DNA from: Candidatus Latescibacterota bacterium
GTDB taxonomy: Bacteria > Latescibacterota > UBA2968 > UBA8231
Length of the DNA: 64,000 nucleotides
Assembly: GCA_965206595.1 (NCBI GenBank)
Contig: OZ242214.1
Span: forward strand, 6,752,001-6,816,000
Direction of reading: 5' to 3'
The stretch's first letter is position 1; every line of letters starts with the position of its first letter. The notes beneath the pieces are model-generated. The model was not told where the DNA came from and searched no databases. It saw only the letters and a list, made by a program, of their open reading frames with translations. This document shows, piece after piece, positions 19,580-33,661 of this stretch. A program made the position numbers and the translations under genes.

Positions 19580-19730
19580 CGGACCAGTTGGCCCGTGTTG
19601 TTGGCTGATGGAACGTAATGGGCACTTCGCCCACGCTCCCTGACTTCAACGAGGCCTTTCGTTCCCCAGGGGGGGCGTATGAGCCTGCGACAAGGGTGGA
19701 TCCCTGGGTGCCGTCGGCGTCGAAATACTC

Positions 19731-24158
<4,428 letters not shown>

Positions 24159-24343
24159 TCTTGCAAGGCAACTCGTTGTGTAGCAATACGAAAAAGGGGG
24201 GATGGCGCGAACCGTATCCAACTCCTGTTGTATAGAGTCCCTTTCGCCACACCGCGGCTCAAATCTCGTTTAACTTCAATCAGTTAAGCGGTGCGCGAAC
24301 CTCCCCGTGTTTACCTGACCGCTTATGGTTCGCACCATCTTTC
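24159..24343 (-). promoter_or_regulatory. CRISPR leader
   Basis: AT-richer non-coding segment between cas2 and the first repeat, with gcgcgaacc at 24205 and 24293 and an inverted ggttcgc at 24327. Confidence 0.8.
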
Positions 24344-24634
24344 TCAGACGATCAATGTTCCGTTCAGGTCGGCAGTTGGCTTAGCCCCAACGTGCTCTAC
24401 ACGCCTCTTCCAATTTGCACCGAGGAAATAATACCTGAGACTGTCGGTTTCTGGATTGATGATGTCCTCAAGCTGCACCTTCAGGGCGGCCCATTGCGCC
24501 GGCTCCACCTCGATCTCAAACACTGAAAACTGCACTCGTTGTCCAAAATCGCGGCACCTCTTAGCGACACGTCTTAACCGGCGTACGCCGCCATCGGATG
24601 TCGTCGAGACATCGTACGTAACGAGAACCATCAT
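24344..24634 (-). CDS. cas2: CRISPR-associated Cas2
   Basis: 'VLVTYDV', 'RLRRVAK', 'GQRVQFSVFE'. Confidence 0.97.
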   Translation of the reverse strand: MMVLVTYDVSTTSDGGVRRLRRVAKRCRDFGQRVQFSVFEIEVEPAQWAALKVQLEDIINPETDSLRYYFLGANWKRRVEHVGAKPTADLNGTLIV

Positions 24635-24689
24635 GGCTGTTTATTTTCCTCACGGGGCGAATATGGTTCTGAAGGGTACGCTAGTAGTC

Positions 24690-25724
24690 CTATTTCCATA
24701 ACCAAGGCGGGTGAGCGTCTAAGTCGCCTCGAAGGTGCCGAGCCAGTAACTGCGCTTGTAGGTACGCGACCAATCCGAGGGGTGCCTGTTCCCCAAGAAA
24801 AGGATGACGACGCTCTACGCGCTTTCGCTCCTGCCAAGCACTGAGAACTGTCTTGCGAGCGCCGTCGCTCATTAAGACGCTGCCGCCTTCTCGGGTTTGG
24901 AAGTCTCTGGTGCGTACTTGCCGACGATTGATTAGCGATAGCGCGAGCCGGTCAGCCAAGACTGGCCGCAGCTCTTCCATAAGATCTAGCGCGAGACTCG
25001 GACGGCCGGGCCGATCTCTATGAAAGAAGCCTACGGCCGGATCCAAGCCCACGCTTTCGGCGGCCGATCTGCAATCGTGGACGAGAAGGGTATAGAGAAA
25101 CGAGAGCAGGGCATTCATCGGGTCACGCGGCGGCCGGCGGTTGCGGCCGGCGAATGCCATCTCTGGGTCGGGTACGCGGATCAGGTGGCCAAAGACGGAG
25201 AAATAGAGCCGTGCGGCCTCGCCTTCAAAACCGCGCAGCCTATCGATACTGTCGTGGCCGTCGCTGATGCGTTGCACAATCTGCCGAAGGCGATTCGTCG
25301 CGGCGGACATGGCTTCGCGGCCAGAAGGCTCAAGCTCGTCGCCGTAATCTCGCTGCGCTCTTTGCAGGACGCTTCTCTGATTGGAGATCTTGCCGACGAG
25401 AATGCTGCGGACGATCTCTTCTGGGTCGTCGCTGGCTCTATATTGGGCGCGACGCAGCAGCACGTTGCCAGAGACCGGTCCCTCGACCCGGGCTTGGAAT
25501 CGGCCGAATCGACTCAAGAGTACAAAGACGATGCCACCGGCGGCACATGCCTGGATCAGGGATGGAGATATATAGATGCTACCAAACACCACTACGGATC
25601 CCAGCATATGGAAGGGCACCCTTATACGTTCTTCATCCTCAATTTTCGCGACCAGATTCTCGCCGTCCTTGGTCAGACGTGCTTCAGGCGTAGTAACGTA
25701 TAGCGTATTAAGCAACCGCCTCAT
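24690..25724 (-). CDS. cas1: Type I-C Cas1
   Basis: 'MRRLLNTLYVTT', 'LRGFEGEAARLYF', 'RPSLALDLMEELR'; ATGA overlap with cas4. Confidence 0.97.
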   Translation of the reverse strand: MRRLLNTLYVTTPEARLTKDGENLVAKIEDEERIRVPFHMLGSVVVFGSIYISPSLIQACAAGGIVFVLLSRFGRFQARVEGPVSGNVLLRRAQYRASDDPEEIVRSILVGKISNQRSVLQRAQRDYGDELEPSGREAMSAATNRLRQIVQRISDGHDSIDRLRGFEGEAARLYFSVFGHLIRVPDPEMAFAGRNRRPPRDPMNALLSFLYTLLVHDCRSAAESVGLDPAVGFFHRDRPGRPSLALDLMEELRPVLADRLALSLINRRQVRTRDFQTREGGSVLMSDGARKTVLSAWQERKRVERRHPFLGEQAPLGLVAYLQAQLLARHLRGDLDAHPPWLWK

Positions 25725-26425
25725 GGGTTTTCTCCAGGCTCGGCAAGGTGCGATGCCAGGGTACGCATTCGCCATGCGAGAACCGACCGGTCCATCGCCT
25801 TCGGGCGACACTGTTCGAACAGAGAACACCCACCGCACTTGGCCGCTTCGTATTCGGCTGGGGGTGTGCGGTTTTGCGCAAAGAGTGTCGCTACCTGCAC
25901 GACTGTCGTCTCGGTCAGGGTGCGGAGCTCGGCGTCAAAAGACACTTCCTTCCGCCGTTTGGTTTGGCCGTAGTAAAAGGCCCCCATCGGCACTTCTGTA
26001 CCGGTCATTTCCTCAAGGCACAGTGCTTGGGCGCAGAGTTGCACCTCGTCGGCGCGATGCACTTTGGCCTTGCCGCGTTTGAACTCGACCGGGAACGGGG
26101 TCGGACCTGTCCGGCTTTCGCGGAACTCGACCATATCGGCGACGCCTGTAAGATTGAGCCGAAGGCTGTAGATCGGGAGCGACATTACTTGGCGCACACC
26201 TGCCCTGCGCCGACGCCCTGCTTCGTCAATGACTTGATGCAGTACTCGACCTTCAGCGGTAAACCGATTTTCCTCCCAAAGCCGTTCCAAGTGGATCAGA
26301 GCGCATTGCCTCATACAGTACACCGCATGTTGCAGTGCCGACACGGGTATCGGCTCCATTCCATGGTCCGATCCATCCCCCTCCCTAGGGGGGGACCGCC
26401 CGAACTGCGCTTCACTCATCGTCAT
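25721..26425 (-). CDS. cas4: Cas4 exonuclease (alternative start 26359)
   Basis: 'SALQHAVYCMRQ', 'GVADMVE', 'PVEFKRG', 'QLCAQALCLEEM', and C-terminal CxxCxxxxxC Fe-S ligands. Confidence 0.95.
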   Translation of the reverse strand: MTMSEAQFGRSPPREGDGSDHGMEPIPVSALQHAVYCMRQCALIHLERLWEENRFTAEGRVLHQVIDEAGRRRRAGVRQVMSLPIYSLRLNLTGVADMVEFRESRTGPTPFPVEFKRGKAKVHRADEVQLCAQALCLEEMTGTEVPMGAFYYGQTKRRKEVSFDAELRTLTETTVVQVATLFAQNRTPPAEYEAAKCGGCSLFEQCRPKAMDRSVLAWRMRTLASHLAEPGENP

Positions 26426-26468
26426 CTCCGCTCCGTTTGTTTCATTCCGTGCCCCGCACAGGGGCGTC
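26365..26468 (-). repeat. Degenerate CRISPR repeat - 42 nt - degenerate repeat (mini-array) at the cas7/cas4 junction
   Basis: 26468-26439 GACGCCCCTGTGCGGGGCACGGAATGAAAC (24/32 to the array repeat, 2 gaps) and 26396-26365 GTCCCCCCCTAGGGAGGGGGATGGATCGGACC (21/32, ungapped). Confidence 0.7.
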
Positions 26469-27412
26469 TATGTGATCGGCTCGACGACCTCGACATTTGC
26501 CGGCATATCGTCCAAGTCGAGCTCTACGCGATAGTCAGCAAAGCTGCGGGCAGGCGGCAGGGTGCCTTCGCTACCATCCGCTTCTGCACGCTGCACACTC
26601 ACCCGCTCAAAGAGCCTATGCGCGGGCGCGTTGCCCAAGGCACTGGCGTGCTTAAAGGCAATGAGCCGACGAGCAACCATTTCGCCGCGGGCGGCCGAGT
26701 GGTCGTGCTCGAACATCTGCGTCAAGGCATTCCAGAGGACGTCGAGATCGTCCGGCGAAAAGCCGGTGCGTTCGGCGAGCTTGGCGGAGACAAAGCCGTG
26801 CGCCCGATACAGCCCGTAGGGCACAATATGTTTGCGACCCATGGTGCGGTGCTCGGTCCGCTCGTCGCCCGCGTTTTCATCGCTGGCATCCTCGCGCTCC
26901 TGCTTTTCGTTTTCGTTGGTCGCTGCCATGCGCGTAATGGACACTTCGAGTGGCACGATCTGATCGATGGACCGCGCAAAGGTCATCTGTACCGGCCCGC
27001 GGACCTGGCCGCAGTTGATGCCGGTACTCATTACCGCACCGAAGGTGCGCACATCAAAGAAATTGTCGCACATGAAGCCGCGCAGTTTATCCATCTCCTC
27101 GTCGCTTTGAGGGCTTAGTTTCTTGCTGCTCTCGACCTTCTTGTCGTTGGGGCGCACAACCCGATACGCCTTCCGGTGTTGCTCGTTGAGCAGAGCACCT
27201 TCCTGGACGTAGATCGCGTAGCCGGACTCGTCGCCCTTAGCCAGTTCGACGAAATTGCGCACCTTGCGCTTGAGGCAGACATCCGTGACCAATCCTTGGT
27301 TCGTTTCCGGGTCGAGGCGCGGGAGGTTTCCTGCATCCGGGTCGCCGTTGGGGTTGCCGTTGTTGACGTCGAACAGATAGACGAAGTCGTAGCGATGGTT
27401 GAGTGCGGTCAT
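26468..27412 (-). CDS. cas7: Type I-C Cas7 (Csd2)
   Basis: 'NGNPNGDPDAGNLPR', 'TDVCLKRKVRN', 'FDVRTFGAV', 'GQVRGPVQ'. Confidence 0.97.
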   Translation of the reverse strand: MTALNHRYDFVYLFDVNNGNPNGDPDAGNLPRLDPETNQGLVTDVCLKRKVRNFVELAKGDESGYAIYVQEGALLNEQHRKAYRVVRPNDKKVESSKKLSPQSDEEMDKLRGFMCDNFFDVRTFGAVMSTGINCGQVRGPVQMTFARSIDQIVPLEVSITRMAATNENEKQEREDASDENAGDERTEHRTMGRKHIVPYGLYRAHGFVSAKLAERTGFSPDDLDVLWNALTQMFEHDHSAARGEMVARRLIAFKHASALGNAPAHRLFERVSVQRAEADGSEGTLPPARSFADYRVELDLDDMPANVEVVEPIT

Positions 27413-27819
27413 TCTTCGTTCTCCTTTTCTTCTTTGCCCTCCTCACTGGGGGCGGACTTGGTGTAGAAATCGTTTTTCTGGTGGTAGTAGCCGATGGCGA
27501 AGAGGGCCTGACGCTCCATCGTCAGCGTCGCCACGAACAGCTCATCGGGCGTGGCGCACCCATAGATCTGGGCGATTGCGTTGTCGATATAGCGATGAGT
27601 TGCAGGCCGGTCTTTCCGCAGACGCGACAGGTGGTTCATGGCGTTGCGTTGCAGGAGGGGAAATACAGACCGCGGCGTCGCCGAAGCCGCCCCGTAGTAC
27701 TTATCGCATATCGTGGCGTTGACCTTGCCACCGAGGGCCTGCGTTTGCGCGTACTCAAAGCAGGCAAATAGCCGGCCCAGCAAATAGCCGGGGTCGGCGT
27801 TTGTGGGATCGAGGGACAC
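27409..27819 (-). CDS. cas11: Cas11c small subunit, internally translated from cas8c
   Basis: In-frame GTG (VSLDPTN...) preceded by AAGGAG inside cas8c, as established for type I-C systems. Confidence 0.75.
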   Translation of the reverse strand: MSLDPTNADPGYLLGRLFACFEYAQTQALGGKVNATICDKYYGAASATPRSVFPLLQRNAMNHLSRLRKDRPATHRYIDNAIAQIYGCATPDELFVATLTMERQALFAIGYYHQKNDFYTKSAPSEEGKEEKENEE

Positions 27820-29232
27820 GATAAAATTCTCCTTTGTTAAATGGTCATCCTTGCGCCTATTTCGGCAGACCACGGCTTTGAGTAAGGCTACGCGCAGGTC
27901 CGTTATGGCCTTATCCGACCGCAGTCGCATGAGAATCGTGGATAACAACGTCTGCGGATAACGGCGACCTGTCAGGATGGCGCGTAGCATATCCCCAGCG
28001 AGTTGGGGAGGGATATGTTCGTATCGGTTTTTTACCTTCGTCGTGGCGGTCTCAAGTAGGCAGCGCCGAACGCTTGGCTGCTCTTGGCGCGGCCGCGGGT
28101 CGAGGCGCATATCCCGATAGTGCCAGAGGATATGCTCGGCAAACGTCGCAAAGTCGTCCTCCAGCCAGAAGCGAATCGAAATACGCGCTGCATTGGGGGC
28201 CAATCCCAGCACGTGGAAGCGCACACCTTGGGGCAAATCCGGGCGGATTTCCTCCATGGGACGGCCCCTTGCCATTTTTTCGAGAATGGGCTTGATGGCC
28301 TGCTCGCTTGTCGCGTCGTCTGTGTCATTGGTGTCATTGAAGGCGAAGGAAAATATTGCCTCGCTTTGCGCCACTGCTTCTGCCTCCGAGCCATCGGCCC
28401 AGAATACAGTCGAGGCGTCACCGAGCTGCACTTTGTTCTCGTTGGTACGGAGAAGGTGGTTGAGCACAGTCGTATAGGCGGCGGCAGCGTCCTCGCTTAC
28501 GGGTGCATTATCGCCCTGTTTGTGCCCATAAGACTCAAAGGCGTCGAGATTGAAAGAGACGATGGATGCGCCGGAAGACTGTGCGCCACGCACCCCCTTG
28601 ATCGCGGGATGCAGCCGGGCGATAGGGGATCTCTCTCCGGTCACCAAGCAAACGGCTTTGCCCGGTTCGTGATCCTGATTCATCTGCAAGGCCCAGAGTT
28701 GACGTGCGGCCTCGCGGTCGTGTATGAAGTTGTGCTCTCCCTCCAGCCGGAACACCACATTGGCCCCCTTCATTTCGTCTGGCCAGCCACGCGCGTCGAA
28801 GTACTCTGGCTTCCACCATTGCAAGAAACGATAATAAGCCACAAGTCCTGCGTCGCTTTCGTTTTGCAGAGCAAAGTGCCTGTTCTGAAAAGCCTCGTAC
28901 TGATTCTCTACCCGCTCGGCACGCCGCTCTCTGGTGTCTGGGGTCTCGCCTTCCAAGTCTTCCATTGCACCAAGCGAATACGATGCCTTGTCCCAAAGGA
29001 AGTTCGGCACAATTTTGACCGTCCGCTTCTCTGGTCGCGGAACTGAGTGTCGCGGGGCTACGGGTTTCTTCCCTGAGTGGTCTCGTAGGTCCACAGGCGG
29101 ACCATCGGACTGGCCATCGGCCTTCAGGACGACGCAATAGTCGATCCGCTCATTGGAATAGCCAATCGGCGGCACTTTGTTCTCTGTTGCGAGCCGGTGA
29201 TAGGCCCGCTCAAGAGAAGCCAGAATGCTCAT
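27409..29232 (-). CDS. cas8c: Type I-C Cas8c (Csd1)
   Basis: 'PNFLWDK', 'CLVTG', 'IVSFNLDAFESYG', 'LAPNAARIS', 'GYLLGRLFA', 'FAIGYYHQ'. Confidence 0.97.
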   Translation of the reverse strand: MSILASLERAYHRLATENKVPPIGYSNERIDYCVVLKADGQSDGPPVDLRDHSGKKPVAPRHSVPRPEKRTVKIVPNFLWDKASYSLGAMEDLEGETPDTRERRAERVENQYEAFQNRHFALQNESDAGLVAYYRFLQWWKPEYFDARGWPDEMKGANVVFRLEGEHNFIHDREAARQLWALQMNQDHEPGKAVCLVTGERSPIARLHPAIKGVRGAQSSGASIVSFNLDAFESYGHKQGDNAPVSEDAAAAYTTVLNHLLRTNENKVQLGDASTVFWADGSEAEAVAQSEAIFSFAFNDTNDTDDATSEQAIKPILEKMARGRPMEEIRPDLPQGVRFHVLGLAPNAARISIRFWLEDDFATFAEHILWHYRDMRLDPRPRQEQPSVRRCLLETATTKVKNRYEHIPPQLAGDMLRAILTGRRYPQTLLSTILMRLRSDKAITDLRVALLKAVVCRNRRKDDHLTKENFIVSLDPTNADPGYLLGRLFACFEYAQTQALGGKVNATICDKYYGAASATPRSVFPLLQRNAMNHLSRLRKDRPATHRYIDNAIAQIYGCATPDELFVATLTMERQALFAIGYYHQKNDFYTKSAPSEEGKEEKENEE

Positions 29233-29891
29233 CGCAGTACCTCCGGCGAATTGGGTGAAGGAATTTCGACAACCCCCTGTTTCATTTCGGCGCGAAAGAA
29301 AAGCGGCTGTCGCTCGTTTTCGTGGTCAATATCGTAGAGCATCCAGCCCAAGTCACGGCTTTCATCAATCGCTGGCGGTAGGTCGTCTTCGTGCTCAATG
29401 AGTGTGTAGTCTGCAGCAAATTCTCGCGTTCCAAGACAGGGCTGGTGAAAGCACTGCCCGTTCCTAGCGCGGCGATTGAAGATGTCGAGGTGTTTGCCCA
29501 CGTTATCGCTTTCGCCCGCTTCGTCCGTCATGTCAAAGTGCGCTTCAATGGCGTACTCAACGTTGACCAAGACGGTTGCGGCGCGTTGCTGGCGATCATC
29601 CTCAACTTTGGTGTAGAGGGTCTCAATGGAGCCCCTGTTTTTCGCCGTGCGGACAGACCCCATGGGAATTTTCTTGCCGACTTCGTTGCGCCGGATCGAC
29701 TGGAACCGAATCGGCTTGAGAACGTGAAGGCGGTCAATGCGCCAGACGATGTCCGGCTTCCAGTGAATGGCCTCCAAGATGCCGCGTGCCGCCGAAGGCG
29801 TCATTACGTCGTAGGATACGCGCTCGACTTTCATTTCCGGCCGAGTGAAACAGGCGTATTCGCCTCCCACGCGCAGACGTATTCCGAACAT
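29229..29891 (-). CDS. cas5c: Type I-C Cas5 (Cas5d, pre-crRNA processing nuclease)
   Basis: 'GEYACFTRPEMKVERVSYDVMTPSAARGILEAIHWKP', 'PCLGTREF'. Confidence 0.97.
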   Translation of the reverse strand: MFGIRLRVGGEYACFTRPEMKVERVSYDVMTPSAARGILEAIHWKPDIVWRIDRLHVLKPIRFQSIRRNEVGKKIPMGSVRTAKNRGSIETLYTKVEDDRQQRAATVLVNVEYAIEAHFDMTDEAGESDNVGKHLDIFNRRARNGQCFHQPCLGTREFAADYTLIEHEDDLPPAIDESRDLGWMLYDIDHENERQPLFFRAEMKQGVVEIPSPNSPEVLR

Positions 29892-29921
29892 GGACGAACT
29901 CCTTTTCTGTGGTATTGTGGT

Positions 29922-29949
29922 ATTTCAATACCCTCCGCACGGGGGGCAC
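29922..29949 (-). repeat. Isolated degenerate CRISPR repeat between cas3 and cas5c
   Basis: GTGCCCCCCGTGCGGAGGGTATTGAAAT, 25/32 to the array repeat with gaps, retaining the hairpin and ATTGAAA end. Confidence 0.75.
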
Positions 29950-29957
29950 CCCTACCA

Positions 29958-32180
29958 TTATATTAGCATCACCTCATCGCCGAGCGCATCCGCGTCCTCC
30001 CAAAGGAGGCCGACATCTTCTTGATAGAGGCTTTGAGTGAAGAGAACGGCGAACTGGTCACCGAAGCGTTCCTGTGCCTCAAAATAAACGTGATTATTTT
30101 TTACAAGTTGTTCTCGGAAGCGAGGATAAACTTGCACAATATAAGGTTGGAGCCGTCGCGCCACCCCGCCAACTCGTTCAACATATGCGAGATCACGCAT
30201 GGCCTTACGCGCTTCCTCTTCTCGGGCGACGATCACCGGCTCAAGTCCACTCTGAATCAGGCGAAACGTCTCGCCAACTTCGCGGAAGGAGAACGAAGTG
30301 CCGTGCTTACTCATCTTGAACTTTTGCAAGAAGTCATCGCCAAGCCCCTCTCCTTTGCGCCAGTACACCTCTTGGAAGTAGTCTTCCATAGCCTCTGGCG
30401 ACAGCAGGTCGTCGTGGCGACCCATGATGCGCTCCATATCTCCGGCAAGCTGGCGCAGTTCAGGCGGACTTTGATGTTCCTCGGATTGGAACGCGGTGAC
30501 AATGCTGTTTGCAACATCTCGTCGACCCTCCCTATTACACCGCCCAGCAGCTTGGGCAATCGAATCAAGCCCTGCCTCGGCCCGCCAAACCCTCGGAAAA
30601 TCCAAATCAACGCCTGCCTCAACCAGCGAGGTAGCAATCAATCGGCACGGCTTGCCTGCCTTTAACCGCTGGCGCACATCCGCAAGGATGCGGCGGCGAT
30701 GCACTGCGTATTGCCGCGTACTCAGATGCACGACGCCCTCAATGTCTGCTTCACGGGCTTGCCGAAAGAGGTCCAAGGCATGTTTCCGACTGTTGACAAT
30801 AACCATGCCTTGCACCGTTTGCGTGAGAGCGGCGCATAGGCTCTCGTCGCTTAGTACGCCCTCGTGGGCGATGGTGACGCGGGCAAGCCTCTGGTGCAAG
30901 CGCGGCGGGTCAGGTGCGAGTTCGCGGACTTGGTCAAAGCCCCCTTCGAAATCAGGTGCCTTGAGTGCCGGTTGGGTCGCGGTGCATAATACTATTGAAG
31001 AACCATAGTTACGAGCTAGTTCATCAAGAACAGCAACCGAAGGCCGTAGTACATGTAGGGGGATAGTCTGCGCTTCGTCGAGGACAATGACCGCACGAGC
31101 CAAATTATGCAGCTTGCGGCACCGCGACGGCCGATGAGAAAACAGGCTCTCAAAGAGCTGGACGTTGGTGGTCGCGACGATGGGGGCCGCCCAGTCCTCC
31201 ATGGCGAGCCGCAGTTTATCGGCTCCCTCCCGATTTGTGGACTTACTTTCGTCAATAGACGAATGATGTTCTAGGACGACGCCCTCACCCAGCACATCGC
31301 GGAAAATCGCTGCGGTCTGGTCAATCACTGAAGTAAAGGGAATAGCATAGATGATGCGCTCAAGCCCGTGTGCTTTGGCATGGTCGAGAGCAAAGGCGAG
31401 GGAAGTCAGCGTTTTGCCGCCGCCGGTCGGTACATTGAGCGAGAACAGGCCCGGAGAGTAATGGGCTTGAGCCCGAACATGCTTCAGAATTTCGCGGCGT
31501 AGGTGATTGACCTTCCCTTTGCTATCAAATCCTGCGAGGTGATCATTGAGCCTATCGCGTAGCGGATCAACTATTTCTGGGAGCGTCGGCCAGTCGCGGT
31601 CAACGGCCTCGCCTTTTGCATCAGCGTAAAAGCCCTCGGTGTCGCGGAAGTCTGCGTCAACGAGGCACGAGAAGATCATCCGTGTCAAAAAGGAGAGCTG
31701 AAACACCGTCGTCTCACGGTCTTTCCCTAATGTGAACCCTTCGGGCCAAAGACCAGTAGCATCTGGCCGAATTTCCAGATCCCAAGTCGAGTCAAGCGGG
31801 TCGAGTGTCTTTTTTAGCCGCTCGTCAAGCGAATTGAGTGAACCGGTCCCGCTTTGCATATCCGGCAGGCCAGCGTGGTGCCCGGCGATGGCATAAGCGA
31901 TGAGTTGCGCCATTGCCCGATCCATATCTGTTTCTACCACGGTGTTGACAATTTTTGCGCCAGCGGTCGCGTGATCCACCGCTGGGCCGCCGTGCAGGCG
32001 CTTCTGGAATGCTTCTGTGTATTTGCCAAGATCATGAAAAAGCCCGGCCAAGCCTGCGGCCTTACCTGTTCCAAACTTGGCTCCTCGTGCCTCCGCCCCG
32101 GCTTGAACCTTAAGCAGGTGCTCCCGTAGCGGCTGCCAGTATTCTTTCGACTGATCTGCGAGAGAGTGAGCATAGTACAT
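29958..32180 (-). CDS. cas3: Cas3 HD-nuclease/helicase
   Basis: Starts 'MYYAHS'; 'HDLGK', 'HHAGL', 'LVDAD', 'VPTGGGKT', 'LDEAQ', 'QAAGRCNREG'. Confidence 0.97.
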   Translation of the reverse strand: MYYAHSLADQSKEYWQPLREHLLKVQAGAEARGAKFGTGKAAGLAGLFHDLGKYTEAFQKRLHGGPAVDHATAGAKIVNTVVETDMDRAMAQLIAYAIAGHHAGLPDMQSGTGSLNSLDERLKKTLDPLDSTWDLEIRPDATGLWPEGFTLGKDRETTVFQLSFLTRMIFSCLVDADFRDTEGFYADAKGEAVDRDWPTLPEIVDPLRDRLNDHLAGFDSKGKVNHLRREILKHVRAQAHYSPGLFSLNVPTGGGKTLTSLAFALDHAKAHGLERIIYAIPFTSVIDQTAAIFRDVLGEGVVLEHHSSIDESKSTNREGADKLRLAMEDWAAPIVATTNVQLFESLFSHRPSRCRKLHNLARAVIVLDEAQTIPLHVLRPSVAVLDELARNYGSSIVLCTATQPALKAPDFEGGFDQVRELAPDPPRLHQRLARVTIAHEGVLSDESLCAALTQTVQGMVIVNSRKHALDLFRQAREADIEGVVHLSTRQYAVHRRRILADVRQRLKAGKPCRLIATSLVEAGVDLDFPRVWRAEAGLDSIAQAAGRCNREGRRDVANSIVTAFQSEEHQSPPELRQLAGDMERIMGRHDDLLSPEAMEDYFQEVYWRKGEGLGDDFLQKFKMSKHGTSFSFREVGETFRLIQSGLEPVIVAREEEARKAMRDLAYVERVGGVARRLQPYIVQVYPRFREQLVKNNHVYFEAQERFGDQFAVLFTQSLYQEDVGLLWEDADALGDEVMLI

Positions 32181-32203
32181 TATTGCACTGCACCTTGCGC
32201 CCG

Positions 32204-33661
32204 TTAGTCGAACAGCTTCGGCAGCTGGTTGTTCAGCGTGATGATGGTGAAATACCCGAAGAAGGCGCAGGACCAGACGATGGCTGCGAAGCGGACCACC
32301 GACATCTTCAGCCCGGCTCCGAGGATGCGGTTGTTCATCCACAGCAGCAGCACCGAATAGAGCAGCATCACCCCCCCGTTCAGCGAGGCGCTGAGCACCA
32401 GCAGCACCAGCGGCTGGGTGAAGCCTGGAACCGCCAGGCCCGCCAGCATGATGAGGCAGCCGAGCGCAATCTGCCCCCACAGCAGGGCGAAGTAGAGCCG
32501 GTTGTCGGGCCAGCGCTCGCTGTCGCGCAGCCAGTTCACCTTGATGATGTCGGTCGAGATGCGGGCGCAGGCGTCGAGAAGCCCCAGCTCCGTCGTCAGC
32601 AGGATGGCGACTCCCATCCACAGGAAGGCGTGCTCGAACAGGGCCCCGTAGCGCTCGCCGATGAACTCCCCCTCGACGCGGATGAAGCCGATCCCGCTTC
32701 CGAGCTCCGGCAGGTGGCGGGTGGTCGCGTAGGCGATGAGCGACAGCATCATCAGCGAAACGACGGACAGCATGTAGAAGCTGAGCAGGTGCTCCCTGTT
32801 GGCGGCCTTCCACCAGGCGCGCCAACGGCTGGCGTTTTCCGGTGTCGCCTCGAAGTGGTAGCCGACCCCGGCGACGACCTCTTCCCTGCCTGTCAGCGGG
32901 CTCGTCAAGCGCCCGGCGAAGCGCCCCATGGCATACCCCTTCTCGCGCACGTAGTCGCTCTGCACCAGGTTCATCGTCCCCCCGGCCCCGGCGAACGCTA
33001 TGGCGCCGAGCAGCAGGGGCAGCTCCATGCCCTCCGGGACGTGGCCGACGTTGAGGATGCCTGCGAACATGTCGGCGACGTGGGTCATCCTCACGACGAG
33101 GAAGAACAGCGCGATCATCGCCAGGAAGATCGCGGCGATCAGGACCATCTGGATCTTCTCGACGGTGTTGTAGACCACCGGGCCCAGGGTCAGGGCCAGG
33201 CCGACGGCGATCAGGCTGGCGATCGAGTAGGCGACCCGCACGCCCTCGCCGCCTCCCAGCTCCCAGGTCATAATCGTCGCCGCTCCCGAGGCCCAGCCGG
33301 GCCACATCCAGGGGACGATGTTGCAGAGCAGGAAGATGCCCGCCCAGTGCTTCCACAGGCGGCAGAACCCGGTGACCGCGGTCTCGCCGGTCGCCAGGGT
33401 CCAGCGCTCGATCTCCATGTTGATGAAGTACTGGGTGGTGATGCCGACCATGCAGGCCCAGAACACCGCGAAGCCGAACTTGTAGGAGATGTAGGGCCAG
33501 AGCACGAACTCGCCGCTGCCGATCGAAAGCCCGAGCAGCAGCAGGCTCGGGCCGATCAGCCTCTTCCAGGGAGGGGCTTCCGGCAGGTCGCGGTACGAGA
33601 CCGGCGGCAGGTTCGAGCTGGGAATGACCTCGTGCGGGACGGTGCCGCCCGGCATCGTCAC
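32204..33661 (-). CDS. Nramp-like / APC-superfamily membrane transporter
   Basis: 'GPSLLLLGLSIGSGEFVLWP', 'ERWTLATGE', and about 11 TM helices. Confidence 0.75.
   Translation of the reverse strand: MTMPGGTVPHEVIPSSNLPPVSYRDLPEAPPWKRLIGPSLLLLGLSIGSGEFVLWPYISYKFGFAVFWACMVGITTQYFINMEIERWTLATGETAVTGFCRLWKHWAGIFLLCNIVPWMWPGWASGAATIMTWELGGGEGVRVAYSIASLIAVGLALTLGPVVYNTVEKIQMVLIAAIFLAMIALFFLVVRMTHVADMFAGILNVGHVPEGMELPLLLGAIAFAGAGGTMNLVQSDYVREKGYAMGRFAGRLTSPLTGREEVVAGVGYHFEATPENASRWRAWWKAANREHLLSFYMLSVVSLMMLSLIAYATTRHLPELGSGIGFIRVEGEFIGERYGALFEHAFLWMGVAILLTTELGLLDACARISTDIIKVNWLRDSERWPDNRLYFALLWGQIALGCLIMLAGLAVPGFTQPLVLLVLSASLNGGVMLLYSVLLLWMNNRILGAGLKMSVVRFAAIVWSCAFFGYFTIITLNNQLPKLFD

Follow-up and report, generated by a model that had tools for sequence, protein, structure and literature searches.

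What becomes of a copy of a CRISPR repeat that has come to lie across the start of a cas gene, and does it still act as a repeat? This question is raised by a stretch of 64,000 nucleotides (nt) from Candidatus Latescibacterota bacterium (contig OZ242214.1, positions 6,752,001 to 6,816,000; the window, labelled WIN beside the other loci), which carries on its minus strand a complete type I-C locus of CRISPR and cas genes. Between cas7 and cas4 of this locus, a degenerate repeat-spacer-repeat unit extends from 26468 to 26365 on the minus strand and consists of a first repeat (PsiR1), a 42-nt 'spacer' (PsiS) and a second repeat (PsiR2). A sequence-only reading of the window had proposed that cutting at both hairpins would release a small RNA of the size of a CRISPR RNA (crRNA) and remove the cas4 start, either as an off-switch for adaptation or to provide a guide that leads Cascade to a promoter. 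From comparison with related loci, we consider with moderate confidence that the unit is a decayed mini-array co-opted as the 5' end of cas4, a fossil combined with start signals and not a working guide gene.

Anatomy and ancestry of the unit

The sequence strings on which the sequence-only reading was built are all present in the window, including the beginning of the first repeat at the last G of the cas7 stop codon (26468). PsiR1 has a stem of 5 base pairs (bp; 26465-26461 with 26455-26451), a 5-nt loop and a 12-nt tail, and its hairpin is present in the minimum-free-energy fold. Its handle-like 11-nt tail, CGGAATGAAAC (26449-26439), agrees at 9 of 11 positions with TGGATTGAAAC, the end of the array repeat GTCGCCCCCCGCGCGGGGGCGTGGATTGAAAC. 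PsiS holds the ribosome-binding site and upstream cas4 start that had been read there, with GGAG at 26434-26431 and 26429-26426 and ATG at 26425-26423 and 26419-26417, and is coding from the ATG onward. PsiR2 has a bulged stem of approximately 9 bp, a loop of 3-4 nt and, following one additional base, a tail of 11 nt; its handle TGGATCGGACC scores 8/11, its fold energy is -21.5 kcal/mol (z-score -0.87), and the hairpin is strong in the window strain only. A third in-frame ATG, at 26359, is the start of the conserved Cas4 body (MEPIPV...). PsiR1 and PsiR2 lie on the same strand as the array, and the 42 nt between them are long compared with the array spacers, which are mostly 33-37 nt. The fold of the region as a whole (26340-26490, 151 nt) was no more stable than those of shuffled sequences (z 0.03). 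In one DNA run (X5), a contig of a near-identical strain lacks 1 nt in the loop of PsiR1 or in the C-run (window 26460). The sequence GAGCCGAT occurs both at the end of cas7 (26474-26484) and at the start of the Cas4 body (26346-26356), coding EPI in both; as an 8-nt direct duplication flanking the unit it was weaker in relatives (6-7/8) and was not relied on.

Ancestry was assessed against the array repeat of the clade (the family repeat), whose loop is CGTGC in most members; the compared loci bear L-numbers (L001 and so on). PsiR1 showed 25 matches to the family repeat in the window and 26 in L002, in an alignment with two 1-nt gaps and a stem that is symmetrically one pair shorter. Without gaps, PsiR2 matched at 21/32 positions in the window, 25/32 in L001 and 24/32 in L002. 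In ungapped comparison outside arrays, 109 of approximately 14.1 million genome positions reached at least 21 matches, and none reached at least 24 against the family repeat. Among 90 type I-C loci for which the fetched DNA included both an array and the cas7-cas4 junction, the own repeat scored at least 13 against the junction in seven, four of them from this clade, and the remaining 83 junctions scored 11 or less. An ordinary intergenic hairpin followed by GC-rich coding sequence might resemble a repeat by chance: the genome has a G+C content of 64%, so that a gapped scan, in which approximately 155 places outside arrays scored at least 26 and PsiR1 was not singled out, is not decisive, and the folding energies are unremarkable. 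The low ungapped background, the shared orientation of the two arms at a spacer's distance, the closer match of near relatives (24-26/32) and the rarity of comparable scores at other I-C junctions all stand against this explanation, to which we give next to no credence. Judged from these scores, the resemblance of both repeats exceeds chance and the mini-array is real, as the sequence-only reading had held. In its similarity to the own repeat, its two-copy spacing and its conservation, the unit fits the operational class 'repeat-like element within cas locus' of Shmakov et al., as defined in the passages of that study used here; these give repeat-like sequences in 34% of 1206 I-C loci and mini-arrays in 7%. 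The enriched positions named in the same passages are beside cas3, cas8 and cas6, and they mention neither the cas7/cas4 boundary nor overlap with a start codon.

Start of cas4 and drift of the repeat structure

The cas7-cas4 junction was gathered from 21 loci of the clade, which together with the window gave 11 distinct sequences, and these were aligned. The sequence AAACGGAG followed by ATG was retained throughout the relatives. L006 and L169 are without the first ATG (ACG and ATT, respectively) and keep the second (equivalent to 26419), and L008 and L009 have ACG and ACA in place of the ATG at 26359; in L009 there is no other in-frame start ahead of the conserved Cas4 motif SALQHAVYC. Read from the upstream ATG, the frame was open, with no stop, in all 11 distinct sequences, and two indels in the tail, of 18 and 12 columns, are both multiples of 3. 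From the open frame and the losses of ATG in relatives, cas4 translation is therefore predicted to begin inside the 'spacer', at 26425 or 26419. The match of Cas4 to PF01930 (80.6 bits against a cut-off of 22.7) covers residues 29-206 of the 234-residue open reading frame (ORF), and the family profile does not extend over approximately the first 22 residues. Within the tail, identity was 0.766 at codon position 3 and likewise 0.766 at positions 1 and 2. This absence of codon-position bias suggested that the tail is translated, yet barely constrained as protein; the remainder of the spacer and PsiR2 would encode an N-terminal tail of Cas4 of approximately 20 weakly constrained residues.

The strength of selection on the repeat structure was examined in the eight sequences that keep the whole unit (28 pairs). 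Pairwise identity was 0.68 for PsiR1, 0.71 for PsiR2, 0.77 for the tail and highest, at 0.82, for the Shine-Dalgarno segment, as compared with 0.73 at the fourfold-degenerate sites of cas7 and cas4. As the unit overlaps the cas4 ORF and its repeat-like parts (0.68-0.71) are no better conserved than the fourfold sites, the alignment does not bear the mark expected of a non-coding regulatory element kept by selection. Helix 1 was paired in 82.1% of 39 cells; when the 3' letters were shuffled, the mean was 79.6% and 147 of 500 shuffles were as high. The U-A pairs of hairpin 1 in L005 and L006 were considered as compensatory changes and rejected, the column shuffles having equalled the score at that rate, and such pairs are what drift from G+C to A+T gives. 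Helix 2 was paired in 54.8% of cells across the relatives. The combined score of both helices was equalled in 4 of 500 shuffles, a figure that comes mostly from one column pair in helix 2 and is not readable as a probability. RNAalifold called neither hairpin on the 11 junctions, because three rows are gapped there. The sequence-only reading had conceded that repeat 2 might prove to be ordinary N-terminal coding sequence with no structural conservation, and half of this caution was borne out: PsiR2 stands in the open cas4 frame, which in L008 and L009 has lost the downstream ATG, and its hairpin is not conserved among the relatives.

The unit was found in all 11 distinct sequences of the clade, with varying decay. 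PsiR1 was recognizable in seven of them (19-26 matches) and was degenerate or deleted in L005, L004, L008 and L009. In L004 the 5' arm of PsiR1 is missing, as are 18 nt, or half, of PsiR2, and in L008 and L009 PsiR1 is reduced to a short stub, L008 being also without 12 nt of PsiR2; these three loci still carry arrays of 25-72 repeats in the fetched DNA. PsiR1 does not track changes of the own array, as the array loop of L008 and L009 is TACAT and their PsiR1 keeps CGTG. The cut context also varied. The substrate requirement of Cas5c was taken from PMC8524198, in the relevant passages of which the Bacillus halodurans enzyme is described as recognizing mainly U22-G23-G24 and the stem base. As compared with the canonical G|UGG, the context in PsiR1 is A|CGG in the window, L001 and L002 and A|UUG in L167, L006 and L169; PsiR2 has A|UGG in the window and G|UGG in some lineages. 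A metagenome scan with Cas7 gave 80 loci, all at 74% identity or less, and added no member to the clade. The near-neutral rate, the shuffle-level pairing, the variable cut site and the partial deletions together give the unit the look of a fossil.

Guide RNA gene, Cas5c site or fossil

One way in which the unit could still work is as a gene for a trans-acting regulator of the CreR, CreA or crlRNA kind, whose 42-nt guide would lead Cascade to a partly matching promoter flanked by a protospacer-adjacent motif (PAM) and repress it without cleavage. Elements of this kind exist in type I-C (10.1101/2024.12.27.630466; 10.1101/2023.03.10.532045; Table 1 of PMC10120712; each source as far as used here), and there is such a unit at cas3/cas5c of L004-L006, with a guide that matches a -10 region beside TTC. 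In L026 (labelled Methylobacterium), the 384-nt cas7-cas4 gap holds an antisense repeat-like unit with a 14/15 TTC-flanked match approximately 85 nt away, which is likely a working crRNA-like regulator at the same gene boundary. The degenerate mini-CRISPRs CreR and CreA, as described in the passages used of 10.1101/2023.03.10.532045 and PMC8501985, share with the window unit two degenerate repeats around a spacer-length segment, an origin from the own repeat, a place inside the cas operon and orientation with the cas genes. They differ from it in lying beside the effector promoter and not at cas7/cas4, and in that their guides are non-coding and partly match a PAM-flanked promoter, whereas the 'spacer' of the window unit is the ribosome-binding site and start codon of a cas gene and its second repeat appears to be translated. 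We searched for TTC-flanked partial matches with a script that recovered the targets of the L004-L006 and L026 units as positive controls. For the 42-mer, the best match in the locus was 13/24 (seed 6/10), and the genome-wide search beside TTC that the sequence-only reading had called for gave at best 12 of 15 counted positions, at three sites; 20 shuffled spacers had maxima of 11-14, and 19 of them had at least one site at 12 or more. In ten relatives the best was 11/15 or less, and the only recurring hit was a 5-nt seed within conserved cas4 coding sequence. The 43-nt non-coding gap is too short to hold a further gene, such as the adjacent toxic RNA gene of a CreTA toxin-antitoxin pair; a creT-like RNA was not specifically searched for. 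The lack of a PAM-flanked target makes a trans-acting guide unlikely; the guide region is conserved because it is the cas4 ribosome-binding site and coding sequence, for which no target is needed. The proposal that a released RNA guides Cascade to a promoter thus found no backing in the locus, the genome or the relatives, and we regard it as very improbable.

The alternative that deserves more weight is that the unit is a working cis-acting site, in agreement with the off-switch of the sequence-only reading. Cas5c would cut the operon mRNA at the base of PsiR1, PsiR2 or both, or would stay on the handle and seed Cas7 over the next ~40 nt. In either case cas4-cas1-cas2 would be split from the Cascade message and the cas4 ribosome site removed or covered, so that abundant free Cascade subunits would damp the adaptation genes. 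The anatomy fits, with a hairpin and handle, the Shine-Dalgarno site and ATG in the first 42 nt, and a second hairpin followed by UGG; cas1 is joined to cas4 by ATGA, and Cas5c is full-length and close to solved active Cas5c proteins (E value 1e-85). The solitary repeat units between cas3 and cas5c of other I-C systems (10.1101/2024.12.27.630466, in the parts used here) belong to the same subtype and follow the same hairpin and 11-nt handle logic: they are cut just 3' of the hairpin, leaving the handle, and their 3' end forms within a further hairpin downstream, for which close similarity to the repeat is not required; PsiR1, the 42 nt and the second hairpin resemble this layout. Those units, however, have a matching target through which they control inserted defence genes or promoters, whereas the window unit is without a target and overlaps coding sequence. 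In mRNAs carrying Csy4/Cas6f hairpins (PMC4604432, passages used here), an endoribonuclease hairpin alters the stability and translation of flanking cistrons, as a cis-acting site would; that use was engineered and in other cells, and in the literature searched we found no natural use on an own cas operon at this boundary. On the other side are the lack of a selection signature on the repeat-like parts in the window clade, the varying cut context, the PsiR1 stem one pair shorter with its closing C-G pair lost, and partial deletion of the unit in 3 of 11 lineages with large arrays. Among 24 listed rows of public runs, 20 contain part of the operon and one is RNA; its 18 contigs, mostly of 90-95% likeness and hence from a relative, cover parts of cas3, cas8c, cas7, cas4 and cas1, and one of them stops at 26411, but contigs cannot show RNA ends and are no evidence either way. 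We consider a working cis-acting site possible, and less probable than a fossil with start signals.

Several observations weigh against a mere fossil. Within the clade, PsiR2 retains UGG after the stem in 8 of the 11 sequences, and its hairpin has approximately 9 bp in the window strain as compared with 4-5 bp in L001 and L002. Four nonsynonymous changes within 12 nt lengthen it, which could reflect selection for structure. In L007 the gap has acquired one more repeat copy, better preserved and with 24 matches; in L007 and L165 this extra copy sits in a 36-nt insertion inside the old PsiR1. According to the same passages of PMC8524198, the Streptococcus mutans Cas5c tolerates changes beside the cut site, whereas the B. 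halodurans enzyme does not, and 11 sequences are too few to exclude weak selection. Further points come from a second complete type I-C locus of the same genome, L191, whose Cas4 is 41% identical to that of the window system and which has a 37-nt repeat in at least 16 copies. At the end of its 49-nt cas7-cas4 gap, a copy of the repeat of this locus extends directly up to the cas4 ATG, and the last 18 nt of the copy, including the 11-nt handle, are identical to the array repeat. The orthologues L175, L176 and L177 share this arrangement, which makes four of the seven loci of the second-system clade. The last 24 nt before the ATG were identical at 17-18 positions, as compared with 0.52-0.60 at fourfold sites, and the loop of the copy resembles the array loop of each genome. 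Longer stems, of 14 bp, are present in L175 and L177 (z -3.95 and -4.22). The second I-C repeat also has C at the first handle position and agrees with the PsiR1 handle at 10/11. That a repeat copy recurs at this boundary suggests a function, for which a relic would not account.

The second-system clade also holds evidence of another kind. In its remaining loci, cas7 and cas4 overlap by 8 nt (L181), are separated by 4 nt (L179) or are parted by a 442-nt insert (L178), and the absence or loss of the element in three of seven loci, where cas7 and cas4 overlap or abut, speaks against a working cis-acting site, as does the hairpin of L191 and L176, which is not stable (z 0.12 and 0.09). In a midpoint-rooted tree of Cas7 and Cas4 (14 rows chosen from loci with both genes), L191 was grouped with L178, L179 and L181 at 100/99 support, and the four carriers did not form one group, which implies that the element was either gained once and then lost in places or gained more than once. 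On both sides of the insert lies a directly repeated stretch of the cas4 start, 9 nt long in L191 and 13 nt long in L175; L177 has the 13-nt duplication as well. In the extended stem of L175 and L177, which lies approximately 50 nt ahead of cas4, the first bases of the handle pair with upstream sequence. The possibility that the PsiR1 handle points to the Cas5c of the second system (10/11 against 9/11) was set aside, since a difference of one base is too little to decide. From these comparisons, a repeat copy at the cas4 start recurs in two I-C lineages of the phylum, and at a minimum such a copy would break the tight cas7-cas4 coupling of loci without it. It is conceivable, and we offer this more hesitantly than the cis-acting site in the window itself, that an own-repeat copy at the cas4 start is a natural self-processing site, at which Cas5c cuts or occupies the mRNA, uncouples cas4-cas1-cas2 from the Cascade genes and ties spacer acquisition to free Cas5c and Cas7; the window would then hold a duplicated version, with the second repeat absorbed into the Cas4 frame.

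Taking both sides together, we rank a decayed mini-array with start signals first and a working Cas5c site second, and leave the remainder for readings that we have not thought of. In the course of events that we favour, the system's own repeat would have been copied into the cas7/cas4 boundary in the ancestor of this Latescibacterota type I-C clade. At present the unit carries the cas4 ribosome-binding site and start codon, and its repeat structure is drifting at about the neutral rate. A single repeat beside the original ATG at 26359 may later have been doubled to a repeat-spacer-repeat; alternatively, a small array may have collapsed. Any Cas5c cutting at PsiR1 or PsiR2 in the window strain would be residual and not selected.

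The surrounding locus and related elements

The genome is a single 7.05-Mb contig, and its nearest relatives are Candidatus Latescibacterota assemblies. The features of the locus are listed in Table 1. The cas1 ATG (25724-25722) overlaps the cas4 stop codon TGA (25723-25721) as ATGA; the two genes are, as the sequence-only reading had it, predicted to be translationally coupled, and changes in cas4 translation would therefore reach cas1. A promoter and terminator scan of 24000-32600 predicted none in the cas7-cas4 junction. At the upstream end, a membrane-protein ORF (32204-33661) has its stop approximately 25 nt before the cas3 ATG. Base composition shifts at the cas3 start and no promoter-like site for the cas operon was found there (both in window 32150-32210); the listed 1132-residue cas3 ORF is an artefact of the open upstream frame. 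In the array, a 231-nt block is present in two exact copies (20033-20263 and 20840-21070), one repeat-spacer unit is doubled in tandem (21375-21443 and 21444-21512), and two 'spacers' within 23872-23990 are only 7 and 10 nt long. The interval after the leader-proximal repeat is 79 nt and opens with a stray 11-nt handle copy (24121-24111).

Table 1. Positions of the repeat-like elements, the cas genes and the array in the window, and of the second type I-C locus.
Feature	Position	Strand	Remarks
cas3	start about 32179, end 29958	-	
Repeat-like stump in the 66-nt cas3-cas5c gap	29922..29955	-	Genome scan score 32; gap comparison in relatives
cas5c	29891-29229	-	
cas8c	29232-27409	-	
cas7 (type I-C, Csd2)	26468..27412, stop TAG 26470-26468	-	Pfam PF05107, E 1.3e-105; ORF list
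PsiR1, degenerate CRISPR repeat	26439..26468	-	25 matches to the 32-nt family repeat
PsiS, 42-nt 'spacer'	26397..26438	-	Holds cas4 Shine-Dalgarno sites and start codons
PsiR2, degenerate CRISPR repeat, predicted to be translated in the Cas4 N-terminal tail	26365..26396	-	
cas4 ORF	25721..26425	-	234 residues from 26425, 232 from 26419; Pfam PF01930, E 1.8e-22
cas1	24690..25724	-	Pfam PF01867
cas2	24634-24344	-	
CRISPR array	19700..24158	-	32-nt repeat, 56 exact copies; PsiR1 and PsiR2 stem from this family
Second complete type I-C locus, L191	G000:C1, about 2114700-2123900		cas3, cas5, cas8c, cas7, cas4, cas1, cas2 by Pfam

Repeat-derived sequence is also present in the cas3-cas5c gap. In the window, this gap (29892-29957, minus strand) contains a repeat-like stump followed by the cas5c Shine-Dalgarno site. 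In L004-L006 the corresponding gap is 177-183 nt long; a repeat close to the canonical form is present in it together with a 28-nt guide that is conserved, a hairpin terminator with a repeat-like beginning and a promoter with TTGACA. Approximately 90 nt downstream, the -10 region of this promoter is matched by the guide at 14/16 positions in L005 and at 12 of the first 15 in L004 and L006, where the mismatches are at positions 3, 6 and 12. By its layout, the L004-L006 unit resembles a type I-C autoregulator of the CreR type acting on the Cascade genes, and the stump in the window is probably left from such a unit. The gap of L002 is an intermediate deletion form. The occurrence of this unit as a stump here and whole in relatives indicated that elements derived from repeats are subject to decay in this lineage.

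Mini-arrays that derive from repeats and lie in cas operons are known to give rise to regulatory guides, and the window unit would represent a different fate, in which such an array has come to provide the cas4 gene with its 5' untranslated region, ribosome site and start codon and the protein with its N-terminal tail. In the literature searched, as far as the passages used extend, we found no mini-array overlapping a cas start codon and no repeat copy abutting cas4. Gene callers and repeat finders each describe one half of the unit, and surveys that count 'mini-arrays' as regulators will include fossils of this kind. The relatives, for their part, would provide a clean case, in type I-C, of a CreR-like autoregulator whose target is the cas5c promoter. 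If the cis-acting reading is true, the junction would show how, in nature, a CRISPR endoribonuclease edits the mRNA of its own operon and thereby sets the ratio of interference to adaptation proteins.

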